Of a DNA stretch of 64,000 nt, positions 2,799-63,643 are shown in pieces. Numbering within the stretch: position 1 is the first letter of the stretch; every line of letters begins with the position of its first letter. The DNA is from a bacterium. GTDB taxonomy: Bacteria; Patescibacteriota; Saccharimonadia; CAILAD01; BJGX01. Both the position numbers and the translations under genes were made by a program. The stretch is from the NCBI GenBank assembly GCA_029778565.1, contig JAKOQC010000187.1, positions 2,615-66,614 of the forward strand. Reading direction: 5' to 3'. The notes under the pieces were generated by a model. The model made no database searches and was not told where the DNA came from. It saw only the letters and a list, made by a program, of their open reading frames with translations.

Positions 2799-3362
2799 AT
2801 GAGTAGAATAGGCAAACAACCAATTGAATTACCAGAAAATGTTACTGTCACTATTGATGGTTTAAGTGTTAGTGTTGCTGGTCCTAAGGGCGAGCTAAAG
2901 CAAAAATTAATGAATGGTTTTGTAATTGAACAAAAAGAAACCCGTCTTGAACTAACGATTGCAGACAAAGAAAAAGAAGCCGAGCTTGGCCAGTATTATG
3001 GACTAATGCGCACACTGGTAGCTAATATGGTAGCCGGTGTTTCTGAAGGTTTTACTAAAGTATTAGAAGTAAATGGTGTTGGCTTTAGGGTAAACCTACA
3101 AGGTCAGAAACTCGAACTTAATCTTGGTTTTTCTCACCCGATTGTTTACACTGCACCAGAAGGAATAGAACTGGCAGTTGATCAAAACCAAAATACTATT
3201 ACTGTGAGTGGTATCGATAAACAACTTGTAGGTGAAGTTGCCGCTCAGATACGATCGTTTAAAAAGCCAGAACCATACAAAGGAAAAGGTATTAAATATC
3301 AGGGCGAGCACATTCGACGCAAAGCCGGTAAAGCTGCCGCCAAAGCCGGAGCAGGAGCATAA
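2799..3362 (+). CDS. rplF: 50S ribosomal protein L6
   Basis: 187 aa; MSRIGKQPIELPENVTVTIDG... two-domain L6. Confidence 0.9.
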   Translation: MSRIGKQPIELPENVTVTIDGLSVSVAGPKGELKQKLMNGFVIEQKETRLELTIADKEKEAELGQYYGLMRTLVANMVAGVSEGFTKVLEVNGVGFRVNLQGQKLELNLGFSHPIVYTAPEGIELAVDQNQNTITVSGIDKQLVGEVAAQIRSFKKPEPYKGKGIKYQGEHIRRKAGKAAAKAGAGA

Positions 3363-58535: not shown

Positions 58536-59915
58536 ATGTTAAGACTATATAATGCTCTTACTAAGAGTAAAAAACTATTCAAGCCAATAAAAGCCAAACA
58601 CGTTACCATGTATAGTTGTGGTCCTACCGTATACGACCATGCCCATATTGGTAATTTGCGAGCGTATATTTTTGCCGATACACTGCAGCGAGTGTTACGA
58701 GTAATAGAGGGTTATACTGTTGACTGGGTAATGAACATTACCGATGTTGATGACAAAATGATTGCCAGAATTCAACGTGATTACCCTAAAGAGGATCCGA
58801 ATATGGCGCTTGGTATTCTGGCCGACAAATATACCGATATTTTCGTAGATGATATCGAAAAAGTAGGCATTCATCGAGCCGACATAGCTAAGCTACCAAG
58901 GGCGACTGACCATATAAAAGGTATGCAAGCGCTTATTACCAAATTGCTACGCGAAAAGATAGCCTATGAGAGCGATGGCAGCTTTTACTTTAGTCTCGAT
59001 GCGTATAAAAAATCGGGCAAAAAATATGGAGTATTGGTAGATTTAGATTATCAGGCCAAAGCTAGGGTAACGGACGATCAAGACCAAAAAGAAGGGGTGG
59101 CCGATTTTGTACTCTGGAAAGCTGAAAAGAAGGGTGAGCCATTTTGGGATTTTGACTATCTTGGTAAAAATTATCCGGGTCGACCTGGCTGGCATATAGA
59201 ATGCTCGGTAATGAGTACCCAGTATTTAGGGCAAGTATTTGATATCCATACAGGTGGGGTAGACTTAAAGTTTCCACATCACGAAAACGAGATTGCGCAG
59301 TGTGGTGGGCACCAGGCGAACTTTTTTGTGCATAACGAGCATTTGCAAGTACAAAGTAAGAAGATGAGTAAAAGTCTTGGTAATATTACCAAACTATCAG
59401 ATATAACAGATCCACTGGCATTTCGTCTGCTTTGCTTGCAAGCGCATTACCGCAGCCAAATGGACTTTTCTGCGGACGCCTTGCAGTCAGCTCATGAGAG
59501 ACTGAACAATTTGCGCGCTTATGCCGATCAATTAGTGCTGGCGAGCGAGCATCAGCTACCAGCTGTGGATGAGTCTGGTATAACATCGCAATTTTGGCAA
59601 ATCTTTAGCGCGAGTCTCGAAGACGACCTCAATACTTCTGCTGCACTCGCAGCACTGGCAGCAATAGAGGGCAAGGTATTTAGTCGTCAAACCCTTGAGT
59701 TACTTCAAAAGGTAGATGCTGTGCTTGGTTTGCAATTAATAAACGAAGTATCAATTAGTTCAGAAGCGCGAGCCACGCTTGCAGATTATCAAAACGCTCG
59801 CGAAGCTAAAGAATATGTAGCATCAGATAAATTGCGCGAAGAGTTAAAGACAAAATATTTGTTGCAAGTTTCTGATACACCCTACGGACCTTTGGTACAT
59901 AGAGTTCGCAAATAA
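58536..59915 (+). CDS. cysS: cysteine--tRNA ligase
   Basis: HIGN (HIGNLRAY) and KMSKS (KMSKSLGN). Confidence 0.9.
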   Translation: MLRLYNALTKSKKLFKPIKAKHVTMYSCGPTVYDHAHIGNLRAYIFADTLQRVLRVIEGYTVDWVMNITDVDDKMIARIQRDYPKEDPNMALGILADKYTDIFVDDIEKVGIHRADIAKLPRATDHIKGMQALITKLLREKIAYESDGSFYFSLDAYKKSGKKYGVLVDLDYQAKARVTDDQDQKEGVADFVLWKAEKKGEPFWDFDYLGKNYPGRPGWHIECSVMSTQYLGQVFDIHTGGVDLKFPHHENEIAQCGGHQANFFVHNEHLQVQSKKMSKSLGNITKLSDITDPLAFRLLCLQAHYRSQMDFSADALQSAHERLNNLRAYADQLVLASEHQLPAVDESGITSQFWQIFSASLEDDLNTSAALAALAAIEGKVFSRQTLELLQKVDAVLGLQLINEVSISSEARATLADYQNAREAKEYVASDKLREELKTKYLLQVSDTPYGPLVHRVRK

Positions 59916-59954
59916 AAAGAAAACCACCCAAATTACTTTGAGTGGTAGGTAGGC

Positions 59955-60347
59955 CTAACGTTGGCGATAACGTCGGCAGGAACTAATTCCGATATGAAAA
60001 GAAGAAAACCACAGCAGGTTAGCTTCGACAATATGAGCACAAGAAGGCACAACTTCTACGAGAACGAGTTGTGGTAAGTGCTCGGTAAGCTCATCGAACA
60101 TTCTGCACGAAAAAGAGGTGCTAATATGTACAAAGTCTCTGTCGGGAGGAATTCTATCCAAAGACTGTTCAGTAGGTGTCCACATATACATTTGCTTCTT
60201 TGGTGAACGTTCTGTGGGAATAATGATTCGCTCTTCCCCGAGCGAATATTTTCCTCTGCTACGTCCCATACAGATAGAACATGTCCGTTTCAGGACTGGT
60301 TCGAAGAAATGAGTTTCACACATTTCTTCAGATTCAACCAGGCTCAT
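59955..60347 (-). CDS. hypothetical Cys-rich protein (130 aa)
   Basis: Longest ORF in a locally GC-rich segment. Eight Cys in total. No family recognised. Confidence 0.35.
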   Translation of the reverse strand: MSLVESEEMCETHFFEPVLKRTCSICMGRSRGKYSLGEERIIIPTERSPKKQMYMWTPTEQSLDRIPPDRDFVHISTSFSCRMFDELTEHLPQLVLVEVVPSCAHIVEANLLWFSSFHIGISSCRRYRQR

Positions 60348-60416
60348 TCATGTCTCCTGAATCTGTCAGTGAACCTAGATATATTAACATATTTAAATAT
60401 TAATGTAAATATAATT

Positions 60417-60446
60417 AAAAACCCCAATCTTTCGATTGGGGTAAAT
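60417..60446 (-). terminator. rho-independent terminator (CCCCAATC-tttc-GATTGGGG) for the small zinc-finger gene
   Basis: Read directly. A-run on the plus strand gives a T-run on the minus strand. Confidence 0.5.
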
Positions 60447-60599
60447 TCAACCCTTGCCAGAGCCCTTGCACTTCTGGCACTTGCCAGAACCGTTGCAGTG
60501 GCTGCAGTTTCTGGCAGCCGGGGTGTAGAAGATGCCCTTGCCGCCGCAGTTGTCACACTTTCCAGTGCCATCACACTTCTCACATGCATGGTATGCCAT
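60447..60599 (-). CDS. 50-aa peptide composed of four CxxCxGxG repeats (DnaJ CR-type zinc-finger-like)
   Basis: Hand-translated: MAYHACEKCDGTGKCDNCGGKGIFYTPAARNCSHCNGSGKCQKCKGSGKG. GC-rich codons. Terminator immediately downstream. Confidence 0.4.
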   Translation of the reverse strand: MAYHACEKCDGTGKCDNCGGKGIFYTPAARNCSHCNGSGKCQKCKGSGKG

Positions 60600-60618
60600 G
60601 TTTCCGTTCCTTTTCAGC

Positions 60619-60636
60619 TAGGTGGGGTGGGTGGGT
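60619..60636 (+). other. G-tract element GGTGGGGTGGGTGGGTTT (potential G-quadruplex)
   Basis: Four G-runs of 2 to 4 separated by single T. Read directly. Confidence 0.3.
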
Positions 60637-60813
60637 TTCTGGTGTAGCGCTTATAGCGCCATCTTAGGCCAAACCAACAAAAGCAAATCCAGAGAATTCC
60701 GCCGATAATATTACTCATCGTCGGGCAGGTCTCTAAACCGTTTGCGCACAGGCGATAAGACCAGAGCAAACAAGAGAACCACAAAAACAATAAAGAGTAG
60801 TATAGAATACCAA

Positions 60814-60936
60814 CTACTCATCACTCTCAACCTTTTCCTTCTTACGAGGAATTCTTACGTCACTACGGATTGCAATCCAGACAGCCGGAATAACCATCAG
60901 CCAGACCACAATCATAATTACACGGGCCTCAATCAT
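60814..60936 (-). CDS. 40-aa hydrophobic micro-protein (MIEARVIMIVVWLMVIPAVWIAIRSD...)
   Basis: Hand-translated. Its ATG overlaps the upstream stop as ATGA. Two further overlapping micro-ORFs of 36 aa and 18 aa follow. Confidence 0.3.
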   Translation of the reverse strand: MIEARVIMIVVWLMVIPAVWIAIRSDVRIPRKKEKVESDE

Positions 60937-61247
60937 CTTTGCCGCCTTCGCTCTCTTTGGTACTCTTGTTCGGCTACAATCAGGTCAACATCAAGATCGA
61001 TAGCCCTCACTACATCATCCTTAGCCGCTTCGCGATCAAACCGGCCACCAGGCGTAATAGGTTTAGTATTGTTGCCAATGTAACTAAACCAAATGTTGCA
61101 TGCAGATCCTTCACCAAGCTGTACATGGCCAAGCTCCATACCAACTTCGCTAAGGTAGCGACAAGTTCTTGGGGTGTTCAACCAATAAGGCTCATTATGA
61201 ACAGCAGGAGCAAATTCGTAATCAGGTGTATCTGGTGTACTCGACAT
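60933..61247 (-). CDS. hypothetical soluble protein (about 104 aa)
   Basis: Start taken at MSSTPDTPD with GGAGGG upstream. No family recognised. GC-rich. Confidence 0.4.
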   Translation of the reverse strand: MSSTPDTPDYEFAPAVHNEPYWLNTPRTCRYLSEVGMELGHVQLGEGSACNIWFSYIGNNTKPITPGGRFDREAAKDDVVRAIDLDVDLIVAEQEYQRERRRQR

Positions 61248-61353
61248 CAACCCTCCAATATGTGAGGTGCAAAAACTAGGCATAATTATACAAAAAAAAT
61301 ATTAATCTGACAAGTTTTATTACTCAAATTACTATAAGCGGTATAATATAGGT

Positions 61354-62574
61354 ATGCATAAGATAAAACTATCTAATACTGAGCATATAGATAATTACAA
61401 AAAACTCCTTCCAGCAGAAGATATCGATAGTTTATATTCTCTAGCCGCCAAACTAAAAGGTAAGAAAATTGTCGAGATTAATGCGACGAGTTTTGGTGGA
61501 GGAGTAGCCGAGTTGCTACGTAGCCAAATACCGCTTATGCGAGAGCTCGGTCTAGATATTGATTGGTATGTATTACCAGCCAACGATCAGTTTTTTAATA
61601 TCACCAAGCAACTGCACAACTGTTTACAGGGAATATGCCCGCTTCACCCAAATGTCGATATAGAATATTACCAAGCCTACTTAGATGATGTTGCCAAGAA
61701 CCTACCCGAGGCCGACATATATATATTGCACGATCCACAAACACTTGGTCTCGCACAACATTTACAAAATAAAAAAGTAATTTGGCGCTGTCACATCGAT
61801 CTCACTGCCGCCGAAGACTCTACGCACAACTGGCTAACACAACATTATCAATACTTCTCTAAAGTTATTTTCTCGCTCGAATCGTATATGGCTGGTATAG
61901 AAAAAAACAAGGCAGCTATTGTCTACCCAGCTATTGACCCATTTAGCAAAAAAAATTACCTACTCAGCGACCAAGAGTGTCAAAAAATTATTACCCAGCA
62001 CCCTATCGATATAAATAAGCCATATATATTACAAGTTTCTCGATTTGATAAGTTTAAAAATCCACTCGGGGTGTTACATATATTTTCTGAGCTACAAAAA
62101 CAAATGCCAGAGATGCAATGTATATTAATGGGAAACTATGCCACTGACGACCCCGAGGGCCAAGAGTATTATAAATCGGTGCATAAGCTAGCAAAACAGA
62201 TTGATCCTTATAATATTCATATTATTGTGCAAACTGACGATATAACCATTAATGCTTTTCAGCGTCGGGCGGCCGCAGTTATACAAAACTCTAACAAAGA
62301 AGGGTTTGGCTTGACCGTTACTGAAGCTCTCTGGAAACAGAAAATCGTGTTTTCTCGGCCGGTGGGTGGCATAACATTGCAGATACTTAACAATAAAACA
62401 GGCTATTATCTGGTGGATGAAGATAGTCTATCGGCCAACGAAATTGTTAAGGTTTTAAGAGGTGGTGAAAAACATTCAGCAATAGTTACTCGTGCTGGTC
62501 ATGAGTTAGTAAAAAAGAAATTTATTACCCCAATAATGGTACGAGATTATTTACGTGCCTACACGTCTATCTAG
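61354..62574 (+). CDS. GT4-family glycosyltransferase, trehalose-synthase (TreT)-like
   Basis: N-terminal INATSFGGGVAELL and a C-terminal GT-B domain (EGFGLTVTEA). Confidence 0.65.
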   Translation: MHKIKLSNTEHIDNYKKLLPAEDIDSLYSLAAKLKGKKIVEINATSFGGGVAELLRSQIPLMRELGLDIDWYVLPANDQFFNITKQLHNCLQGICPLHPNVDIEYYQAYLDDVAKNLPEADIYILHDPQTLGLAQHLQNKKVIWRCHIDLTAAEDSTHNWLTQHYQYFSKVIFSLESYMAGIEKNKAAIVYPAIDPFSKKNYLLSDQECQKIITQHPIDINKPYILQVSRFDKFKNPLGVLHIFSELQKQMPEMQCILMGNYATDDPEGQEYYKSVHKLAKQIDPYNIHIIVQTDDITINAFQRRAAAVIQNSNKEGFGLTVTEALWKQKIVFSRPVGGITLQILNNKTGYYLVDEDSLSANEIVKVLRGGEKHSAIVTRAGHELVKKKFITPIMVRDYLRAYTSI

Positions 62575-63063: not shown

Positions 63064-63483
63064 TTATTTTTTCTTTTTACCAAGCTTTTCTTGAAGTTCT
63101 TTAATACTTGGTTTTGGTTCGTCTAAGACTTCTAGCCTCATTGATTGACGCGAAAACCCAATTTGCAACATACCAATGGGAGAGCCAGGAATAAGCCAAA
63201 ATGTTGAGTAGGCAAAACTTTTACGAAAAACCCTGCCTAAGCGATACGCCACCGCAACAGAATAAACCGCTCCTACACCCGGAGTAAGAGAGAGTGCAAA
63301 CCAACTTTGTGGTAAACGTAATACCCTAATTAAGCAAGCAAAATTATACATAGGCACTATGGCATGCCAGGCCGGTTCTCCAAGCTTACGAAAAACCATG
63401 CTTAAGCCAAGTGCATAACAGAGGTAGAGAAAAATAGCGATAATAATAACAGCTATACTGGCATTAATAAGGGCTTGGATCAT
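63064..63483 (-). CDS. hypothetical membrane protein (3 to 4 TM, K-rich C-terminus)
   Basis: 139 aa. No confident family. Confidence 0.5.
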   Translation of the reverse strand: MIQALINASIAVIIIAIFLYLCYALGLSMVFRKLGEPAWHAIVPMYNFACLIRVLRLPQSWFALSLTPGVGAVYSVAVAYRLGRVFRKSFAYSTFWLIPGSPIGMLQIGFSRQSMRLEVLDEPKPSIKELQEKLGKKKK

Positions 63484-63568: not shown

Positions 63569-63643
63569 TGGGGAGTGGCCAAGTGGTAAGGCAGCGGCTT
63601 TTGGTGCCGCCATTCGGGGGTTCGAATCCCTCCTCCCCAGCCA
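63569..63643 (+). tRNA. tRNA-Gln (anticodon TTG), CCA encoded
   Basis: Acceptor TGGGGAG/CTCCCCA. Loop TTTTGGT. Closely resembles E. coli tRNA-Gln in its D-arm GCCAAGTGGTAAGGC. Confidence 0.85.

Follow-up and report, generated by a model that had tools for sequence, protein, structure and literature searches.

Can a chain of genes of only 34 to 50 codons, most of them passed over by gene callers, form a genuine operon, and what could such an operon do? This question is raised by a locus of a bacterium of the class Saccharimonadia (phylum Patescibacteriota), located between cysS and a TreT-type glycosyltransferase gene of family GT4 in a stretch of 64,000 nucleotides (nt) of contig JAKOQC010000187.1 (positions 2,615 to 66,614 of the forward strand), which is termed the window hereafter and to which all the coordinates refer unless another contig is named. 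A preliminary description of the window had pointed to coupled micro-proteins and Cys-rich peptides at this locus, and had considered a peptide precursor, metal handling or a small membrane complex, with a foreign origin. Here, we report that the genes are real, that they make up an operon which appears, from comparison of relatives, to be vertically inherited and specific to a subclade of Saccharimonadia, and that its products may form a membrane microprotein complex carrying a cytoplasmic zinc finger of the DnaJ type.

Organization of the operon

Both flanking genes were found as described, on the plus strand: cysS at 58536-59915 (tRNA-synt_1e, E 6e-88), which flanks the region at the side of p130, and the TreT/GT4 glycosyltransferase gene at 61354-62574, at the side of p104 and its promoter. 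Every open reading frame (ORF) listed between them is on the minus strand, as are the promoters, the leader box and the terminators given below. Five genes lie between a single promoter and a single terminator, in the order p104, microA, microB, microC and c50, encoding 104, 40, 36, 34 and 50 amino acids (aa), respectively. The minus-strand ORFs of 104, 40, 36 and 50 aa and the overlaps of the ATGA type are present as claimed in the preliminary description, while the third micro-ORF, to which 18 aa had been assigned there, actually encodes 34 aa (60614-60718).

The operon promoter (61285..61313) consists of TTGTCA, a 17-nt spacer and TATAAT, with TG immediately 5' of the -10 box, and agrees with the consensus at 11 of 12 positions. 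When the window is aligned with the related contigs L085, L148 and L151, CTTG of the -35 box and GTATAAT do not vary. At or just past the likely transcription start there is a 13-nt leader box, AGTTTTTGCACCT (61265..61277), and promoter and leader box are kept together across four loci. The box (AGTTTTTGYACCT) shows little or no variation among four orthologous leaders despite saturated synonymous sites. It takes the form AGTTTTTG(C/T)ACCT directly 3' of the -10 TATAAT, at 61265-61277 (-) in the window, 2167-2179 in L085 and 1764-1777 in L148, and occurs also at 2761-2773 in L151 and at about 262 in L144; no second exact copy was found within the window. Folding sets ACCUC of the leader opposite GGAGG of the Shine-Dalgarno site, as a predicted pairing. 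A structured RNA was considered here and rejected, since the Rfam scan of the region gave sub-threshold noise only, with no family at threshold, and the leader hairpins are no more stable than shuffled sequence, their z-scores not being significant.

The first gene, p104 (60933..61247), encodes a soluble protein and is preceded by the Shine-Dalgarno site GGAGGG. The database call for this protein has 116 aa, with a start upstream of the -10 box; the homologues align with the 104-aa start. The start of microA (60814..60936) overlaps the stop of p104 (ATGA), microB (60711..60821) overlaps microA at GATGAGTAG, and microC (60614..60718; MSNIIGGILWICFCWFGLRWRYKRYTRNPPTPPS) overlaps microB at GATGAGTAA; the Shine-Dalgarno sites before microC are weak. 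The c50 gene (60447..60599) starts 17 nt past microC, after AAGGAA. Directly 3' of it there is an intrinsic terminator (60421..60442) with a 9-bp stem, a 4-nt loop and a T-run, which bears out the earlier statement that a 50-aa peptide of four CxxCxGxG repeats has a terminator of its own. Equivalent hairpins are found 3' of the zinc-finger gene in L085, L151, L152 and L006.

Each of the three micro-ORFs is predicted to encode a single-pass membrane microprotein. The Kyte-Doolittle 17-residue window reaches 2.77 in microA and 3.41 in microB. Each helix is preceded by 0-2 charged residues and followed by 2-6 Lys/Arg within 15 residues, and the C-terminal flank of microA carries charges of +6/-3. 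The tail motif of microB is PVRKRFRDLPDDE, and microC is laid out as the helix, RWRYKRY and a Pro/Thr linker. The G-tract at 60621-60635, previously listed as a separate element, is in fact the antisense of the N-P-P-T-P-P codons that encode this linker inside microC, and is absent from the L085 orthologue.

Both micro-ORF junctions (60814-60821 and 60711-60718) share the 9-mer GATGAGTA(G/A), which reads '...DE stop' in one frame and 'MS...' in the other; the first junction of L085 is GATGAATGA. This common 9-mer, together with the common layout of a short N-terminus, a helix and a basic and then acidic tail, suggests that the micro-ORFs are old tandem duplicates.

Conservation and gene fusions in relatives

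The contigs of p104 relatives were fetched and their gene orders were read. At least seven further contigs of Saccharimonadia contain the module, which almost always adjoins cysS. In L085, whose CysS is 86% identical, the order is p104, ORFs of 37 and 39 aa, an 87-aa ORF joining helix and zinc finger, a terminator, p130 and cysS. L148 has p100, ORFs of 40 and 35 aa, a 61-aa Cys peptide, p132, the DUF5684 gene and cysS; L151 has p96, ORFs of 39 and 36 aa, a 59-aa Cys peptide, a terminator and cysS; and L152 has p101, a 39-aa ORF, a 75-aa ORF of helix and zinc finger, a terminator and cysS. The order in L145 is p97, a 33-aa ORF, an 82-aa ORF of helix and zinc finger, and a sortase gene, and in L144 it is p101, a 70-aa membrane protein and a 33-aa ORF, followed by the contig end. 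A reduced form of the module is found in L086 and L087, with a divergent 86-aa protein, a helix and zinc finger of 77 or 69 aa, respectively, and cysS, while L006 has two Cys peptides only, beside cysS. The module is located between RRM/TreT genes and cysS in L085, L148, L151, L152 and L086. In the more distant L005, whose CysS is 60% identical, it is absent and cysS abuts the RRM gene; its gain or loss thus took place within the class, and not recently. The narrow clade distribution makes the immediate impact of the finding moderate.

The micro-ORFs keep their length, stop/start overlap, hydrophobic 17-residue core and tail motifs in relatives. For example, microA has orthologues of 33-40 aa, in an identical position and with an identical overlap, in L085, L148, L151, L145 and L152, and all have a (S/T)D.R motif after the helix, while the microB tail P[VL]RKRF..LP..DE is kept in L085, L148 and L144 and occurs as a variant in L151. 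Since order, overlaps and motifs recur in diverged relatives, the ORFs are beyond chance, and the coupled micro-proteins and Cys-rich peptide of the preliminary description are genuine.

The synonymous sites between the window and L085 are saturated (the proportion of synonymous differences, pS, is 0.71-0.92). Consequently, the ratio of nonsynonymous to synonymous substitution rates is not computable, and the proportion of nonsynonymous differences, pN, is given against pS instead. It is lower in every ORF: pN and pS are 0.12 and 0.76 for c50, 0.35 and 0.89 for microC, 0.41 and 0.92 for microB, and 0.51 and 0.90 for microA, and pN is 0.26 for p130 and 0.27 for p104. With pN below pS and the genes kept in relatives, the conservation of the micro-ORFs at the protein level, on which the earlier proposal hinged, is borne out. 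The slowest of these products, c50, evolves about as slowly as CysS, both being 86% identical to their L085 counterparts.

In-frame joins of a helix to the zinc finger are found in four lineages. It is microC that is joined to the finger in the single 87-aa ORF of L085, with the same helix and RYKRY; microB is joined to it in L086 (77 aa) and L152 (75 aa), with the helix and PVR(K/R)RF; and in L145 (82 aa) the helix is of unclear type. These fusions suggest that the zinc finger is anchored at the membrane on its cytoplasmic side, and the fusion/fission series (finger separate, with microB, with microC) argues that a DnaJ-type finger may work at the membrane with microproteins. The conserved single-pass helices and the fusion of the finger to a helix in relatives fit the 'small membrane-complex locus' suggested previously.

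In the window itself, the frames of microC and c50 differ, and a TAG in the c50 frame is located upstream of the c50 ATG. A programmed frameshift joining microC to c50 is ruled out by this TAG, which lies between the C-tract and the ATG. An assembly error as the source of the split is ruled out as well, for the microC/c50 junction is identical in four independent assemblies.

The zinc-finger peptide

The peptide c50 contains four exact CxxCxGxG motifs with 8 Cys, amounting to a Cys content of 16%. The motifs start at residues 6, 15, 32 and 41, and the repeats fill residues 6-48 of 50. Amid the motifs there is a conserved loop, GIFYTPAARNC, with the family form G(I/V)FYTPAA(K/R)xCSHC. The identity to the peptide of L006 is 50%. 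In the central cysteine-rich domain of DnaJ, four CxxCxGxG motifs bind two zinc ions; judging from its motifs, c50 would be a zinc finger of this type and is predicted to bind two zinc ions likewise.

The best Pfam match of c50 is DUF7895 (PF25433) with 22.9 bits (threshold 27), for which the L085 fusion obtains 21.7 bits. The second-best is DnaJ_CXXCXGXG (PF00684) with 20.0 bits (threshold 32.7), for which the relatives obtain 14.6-16.6 bits, and the top NCBIfam matches are DnaJ models, also below threshold. The scores for anti-TRAP are 12.0 bits against a threshold of 32 (PF15777) and 13.8 against 65 (NF058604).

Why, then, had this peptide gone unnoticed? It is absent from a database of 5.8 billion protein sequences, where a word-indexed search gave nothing, because gene callers put a plus-strand ORF of 92/112 aa, antisense to c50, in its place (60309-60647 (+) in the window; 2983-3261 in the strain variant L001). 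L085 has no conserved counterpart of the antisense ORF, and the region is not covered by any plus-strand gene that has homologues, in agreement with the preliminary description. The microB and microC genes are likewise uncalled, so that p104 and the 40-aa ORF are the sole annotated genes of the module. Conserved genes of 34-50 codons are systematically missed or mis-called in genomes of the candidate phyla radiation (CPR)/Patescibacteria.

Stand-alone peptides of 45-100 aa with four CxxCxGxG motifs are common in unrelated metagenome contigs (L088-L143, GC 35-65%), and two of them just exceed the DUF7895 threshold, with 27.3 and 28.9 bits. The c50 peptide agrees with DUF7895 and these peptides in size class and motif pattern, but it scores below the threshold and has its own loop, and the operon of p104 and micro-helices was not seen around the other peptides examined. 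The literature yielded nothing about DUF7895, nor about modules of this kind in Saccharibacteria. As to the surroundings of the unrelated peptides, those of a human-gut group bear a signal of the lipoprotein type (MRKKIVLLFVAILSLAFCSCEE...), the peptide of L132 is downstream of a radical-SAM-like gene with a CNWNCFYC motif, and in L141, as in L145, the peptide adjoins a sortase gene.

Compared with the central domain of DnaJ (PF00684), c50 has the same four exact CxxCxGxG motifs as two pairs round a central loop. However, it is a stand-alone product of 50 residues without J-domain, G/F region or C-terminal client-binding domains, its motifs are more tightly spaced, its score is below threshold, and in relatives it is predicted to be membrane-tethered and is fused only to a transmembrane helix. 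Anti-TRAP (RtpA) of Bacillus has two motifs and binds one zinc ion per chain; c50 resembles it in having about 50 residues and DnaJ-type CxxCxGxG motifs, anti-TRAP acting by binding another protein, and there are weak matches (E 0.047-0.22). The scores are nevertheless far below threshold, and the c50 locus is without trp or T-box context. The closest functional analogy for a membrane-associated finger is provided by the chloroplast proteins LQY1, PSA2 and BSD2/ZnJ2, which are small proteins whose sole recognisable part is a DnaJ-type Cys-rich finger and which serve as chaperones in assembly or repair. Unlike them, c50 shows no homology beyond the motif (no BSD2_CRD match), belongs to a different kingdom and compartment, can have its anchor on a separate polypeptide of 34-36 aa, and is accompanied by extra microproteins and p104 in an operon. 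The fingers of DnaJ, LQY1, PSA2 and BSD2/ZnJ2 bind proteins, and act as holdases or assembly factors, some with disulfide-isomerase activity (PMC5818400). Stand-alone DnaJ-type finger proteins are already known; the novelty here lies in the setting of the finger within this operon, in the families of p104 and p130, in the micro-helices, which are conserved together with tail motifs, and in the fusion/fission series.

The p104 family

When p104 was used as the query of an exhaustive HMMER search, 8 relatives were obtained, each about 100 aa long, with E from 2e-32 to 2e-6. The family aligns at full length, with W22, G36, L39, G40, G45, W53, F54, E73, A75, K76 and V79 invariant, and the identity between carriers is 30-55%. 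Among 1.84 billion proteins, the family amounts to nine clusters at 50% identity. The AlphaFold2 model of p104 (predicted local distance difference test, pLDDT, 86) shows a four-stranded sheet followed by a 30-residue C-terminal helix with a basic end, and the homologues have basic C-terminal tails on this long helix as well (RRRQR, GKQR, GRRR, GKRR). The 86-aa protein of L086 aligns with the family at an hhalign probability of 33%, and a match of p104 to P0012, a 1466-aa repeat protein, was treated as spurious.

No family match was obtained for p104. Profiles of the p104 and p130 families found no hit, or E 1.4, among the PDB sequence profiles, and word-indexed protein searches with the two proteins returned self or one homologue only. 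More generally, nothing above threshold was found in Pfam, NCBIfam, PADLOC or PHROGs for the six products (the five of the operon and p130) or their relatives, and the earlier judgement that no recognised family is present thus stands. On this comparison, p104 founds a small family without annotation. The locus thereby defines two such families, p104 and p130, in organisms whose lineage-specific genes are mostly without function.

Proposed mechanism

What could the operon do? The reading we consider best, and hold tentatively at somewhat under even chances, is that of a vertically inherited, lineage-specific operon encoding a membrane microprotein complex with a cytoplasmic DnaJ-type zinc finger and with p104 as its partner or client. 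The data above show that the genes are real and conserved, that they form an operon in which a single promoter drives five translationally coupled genes, and that fusions occur in relatives; we infer the topology, zinc binding, complex formation and chaperone or adaptor activity as follows. Each micro-helix would insert with its very short N-terminus outside and its basic and then acidic tail in the cytoplasm. According to the positive-inside rule, the positively charged flank of a membrane helix faces the cytoplasm; given the charge distribution of the helices, the tails and the zinc finger are thus predicted to be cytoplasmic. Such a placement of the Cys-rich part would suit zinc-binding thiols, as the cytoplasm is reducing. 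There, c50 would fold about two zinc ions, and one to three helices would hold it at the inner face of the membrane, non-covalently in the window and covalently where the genes are fused. At the membrane it may act as a DnaJ-type protein-binding module, either a holdase or an adaptor. By analogy with the known fingers, a holdase or assembly-factor type of activity, in some cases with disulfide-isomerase activity, is most likely for it. Docking could take place at the acidic tails of the microproteins, and p104, with its long C-terminal helix and basic tail, would be the partner or client of the finger, although its role in the complex is a guess.

Several observations weigh against this reading. 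The score of c50 is below every family threshold tested in Pfam and NCBIfam. Its motif starts are spaced by 9, 17 and 9 residues, much more tightly than those of E. coli DnaJ (17, 22 and 14), and the fold may differ. For p104, there is no recognisable fold relative, the model having no fold match in PDB or BFVD. In addition, a second type of Cys peptide, of roughly 60 aa with 7 Cys and 1 His (MAEICxDSSHxGTKSCWTCKGTG...CxxCNG..VCKxC), substitutes for c50 in L148 (2336-2521) and L151 (3325-3504), and stands beside the c50 type in L006 (9599-9778 (-)). Finally, L006 and L141 have the peptide but neither micro-ORFs nor p104; therefore, a membrane tether would not be obligatory.

Alternative explanations

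The main rival to the membrane chaperone or adaptor complex is a sequestration switch, in which the membrane-held finger inactivates a putative regulator, p104, and releases it upon a change of zinc or thiols, as anti-TRAP acts on TRAP or zinc-binding anti-sigma factors act on a sigma factor. The gene order, with a regulator-like protein first and then a membrane-anchored Zn/Cys protein, is what such a switch would have, the basic tail on the long helix of the p104 homologues would suit a regulator, the conserved leader box suggests that the operon is regulated, and both c50 (E 0.047) and the type-2 peptide (E 0.002) weakly resemble anti-TRAP. However, family scans show no DNA-/RNA-binding or sigma-like domain in p104, the thresholds of anti-TRAP and of ZAS (zinc-binding anti-sigma) are not reached, no extracytoplasmic sensor domain is present, and the peptide also occurs without p104 (L006 and L141). 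We regard the switch as unlikely. A bolder combination, which we regard as decidedly unlikely, would be a novel membrane machine of the CPR lineage, where the three helices, the zinc finger and p104 form a thiol- or zinc-sensitive switch on p104, anchor and finger fuse and split repeatedly, and the position beside cysS reflects a functional link to the cysteine or zinc supply.

Could the peptide instead be a zinc or thiol buffer, which stores or delivers zinc, or reports the cysteine supply, for the neighbouring cysS? The zinc-finger gene is located within 0-2 genes of the cysS 3' end in 7/8 loci although the surrounding genes vary, 16% of the residues of the peptide are Cys, and the CysS enzyme needs zinc. 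On the other hand, the genes are convergent with cysS and lie between a promoter and a terminator of their own; they are therefore not co-transcribed with it, and the adjacency is explicable as plain synteny among related small genomes. Besides, the CxxCxGxG motifs of DnaJ form structural, non-exchangeable zinc sites, and no metallothionein or transporter match was found, which also leaves the metal handling proposed in the preliminary description without a counterpart at the locus. A buffer is thus a very unlikely explanation.

The composition had been taken as a sign of foreign origin, and the region could then be a recent islet, such as a lysis or holin-like cassette of a phage, a toxin-antitoxin pair or a mobile module of some other kind. 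The G+C content does rise here, as described, but modestly: it is 0.448 against a window mean of 0.408 (standard deviation 0.023), the 93rd percentile, with a peak of 0.53 over the Cys/Gly-rich c50, and the tetranucleotide distance is at the 94th percentile. The proteins of helix plus charged tail are also superficially holin-like, and L005 lacks the module. However, the module is at the same position in relatives with CysS identity of 86% or less and p104 identity down to 30-55%. The G+C content at third codon positions (GC3) of p104 (0.36) and p130 (0.39) is within the range of the genome (0.34 ± 0.035 for long ORFs). The outliers are c50 with 0.69 and the micro-ORFs, of 35-40 codons each, with 0.46-0.51. 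In c50, Lys is encoded by AAG in 7/7 cases (31% genome-wide) and Gly by GGC in 7/10. It should be noted that the orthologous zinc-finger genes of L085, L086, L145 and L006 have GC3 of 0.51-0.65, against 0.28-0.40 for their cysS. As the orthologues have the same excess, it belongs to the gene itself and does not mark a recent transfer; the codon bias could result from high expression, from RNA structure or from antisense constraints.

Nor were the marks of a mobile element found around the module. There is no integrase or transposase ORF and no flanking tRNA gene, only short, imperfect repeats without meaningful terminal ones, and no lysin gene in the region. The nearest tRNA gene, that of tRNA-Gln (UUG) at 63569-63643 (+), is 2.3 kb off with three genes between. 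No PHROG match has E below 0.03, PADLOC gave no match at E ≤ 1 for the six products and two relatives, and no relatives were found among viral contigs or phage records. A recent foreign islet is thereby largely refuted, and we consider it highly improbable.

A ribosomally synthesized and post-translationally modified peptide (RiPP), that is, a Cys-rich peptide to be modified and exported, is suggested by the shortness and Cys content of c50, and a similar peptide does follow a radical-SAM gene in the unrelated contig L132, but this explanation is scarcely credible here. The 5 kb or so to each side of the module contain no radical-SAM, LanM, YcaO, peptidase or exporter gene. The peptide, filled by its repeats, is not divided into leader and core, and what extends it N-terminally in relatives is a membrane anchor that faces it to the cytoplasm; in addition, purifying selection is strong along its whole length. 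We give next to no credence to the micro-ORFs being chance frames in a long untranslated region or spacer, with only p104 and perhaps the peptide as genes, which the calling of just p104 and the 40-aa ORF and the weak sites before microC might suggest, since five to six loci with saturated synonymous sites have retained the frame, the length of 33-40 aa, the overlap, the hydrophobic core and the tail motifs, and helices are joined in frame to the zinc finger.

p130, flanking genes and strain variation

Downstream of the operon terminator lies p130 (59955..60347), encoding 130 aa, with a promoter-like site of its own (60381..60409) that consists of TTTACA, a 17-nt spacer and TAATAT with TG, and is identified by consensus match only. 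Between p130 and the convergent cysS there is a terminator hairpin (59923..59946) with a 10-bp stem and a T-run, common to both genes. The ORF was described correctly before, its Cys count was not: it has 6 Cys rather than 8, three of which (C10, C23 and C26) are conserved. In its N-terminal part the protein contains a C-x2-H-x9-C-x2-C site, its C-terminal domain is conserved, and C10, H13, C23 and C26 are invariant in four orthologues, including P0003 (57% identity) and those of L085 and L148. No family match was found in Pfam, NCBIfam or the PDB sequence profiles, and the AlphaFold2 model is poor (pLDDT 58). The gene is absent where the zinc-finger gene abuts cysS, namely in L151, L152, L086 and L006. 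Given its separate promoter and its absence from half of the loci, it is uncertain whether p130 is a part of the module.

The neighbouring genes of the window encode CysRS, RNase T, RecR, YbaB, the TreT-type glycosyltransferase, an RRM protein and a DUF5684 membrane protein, the last of these at 63064-63483 (-) near the tRNA-Gln gene. DUF5684, TreT and p130 shift position or drop out among relatives, and since their placement differs, the stretch from the RRM gene to cysS is a variable spot in these genomes. The nearest species representatives to the source genome have CysS identities of 65% and 60%.

The same locus is present in 4 independent metagenome assemblies, of which 3 are essentially identical and 1 is a strain variant (L001). 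Between the window and L001, 27/32 differences fall within 1 kb (60942-61947) comprising p104 and the 5' half of TreT, and alter 4 amino acids of p104 and 8 of TreT; the remaining 8.2 kb have 5 changes, all synonymous. Such clustering resembles the outcome of recombination with imported DNA or of diversifying selection acting locally. In L001, an additional A in an A-run (window 61947; L001 1055-2276) splits the TreT gene into ORFs of 221 and 167 aa, which could be due to phase variation, a pseudogene or an assembly error.

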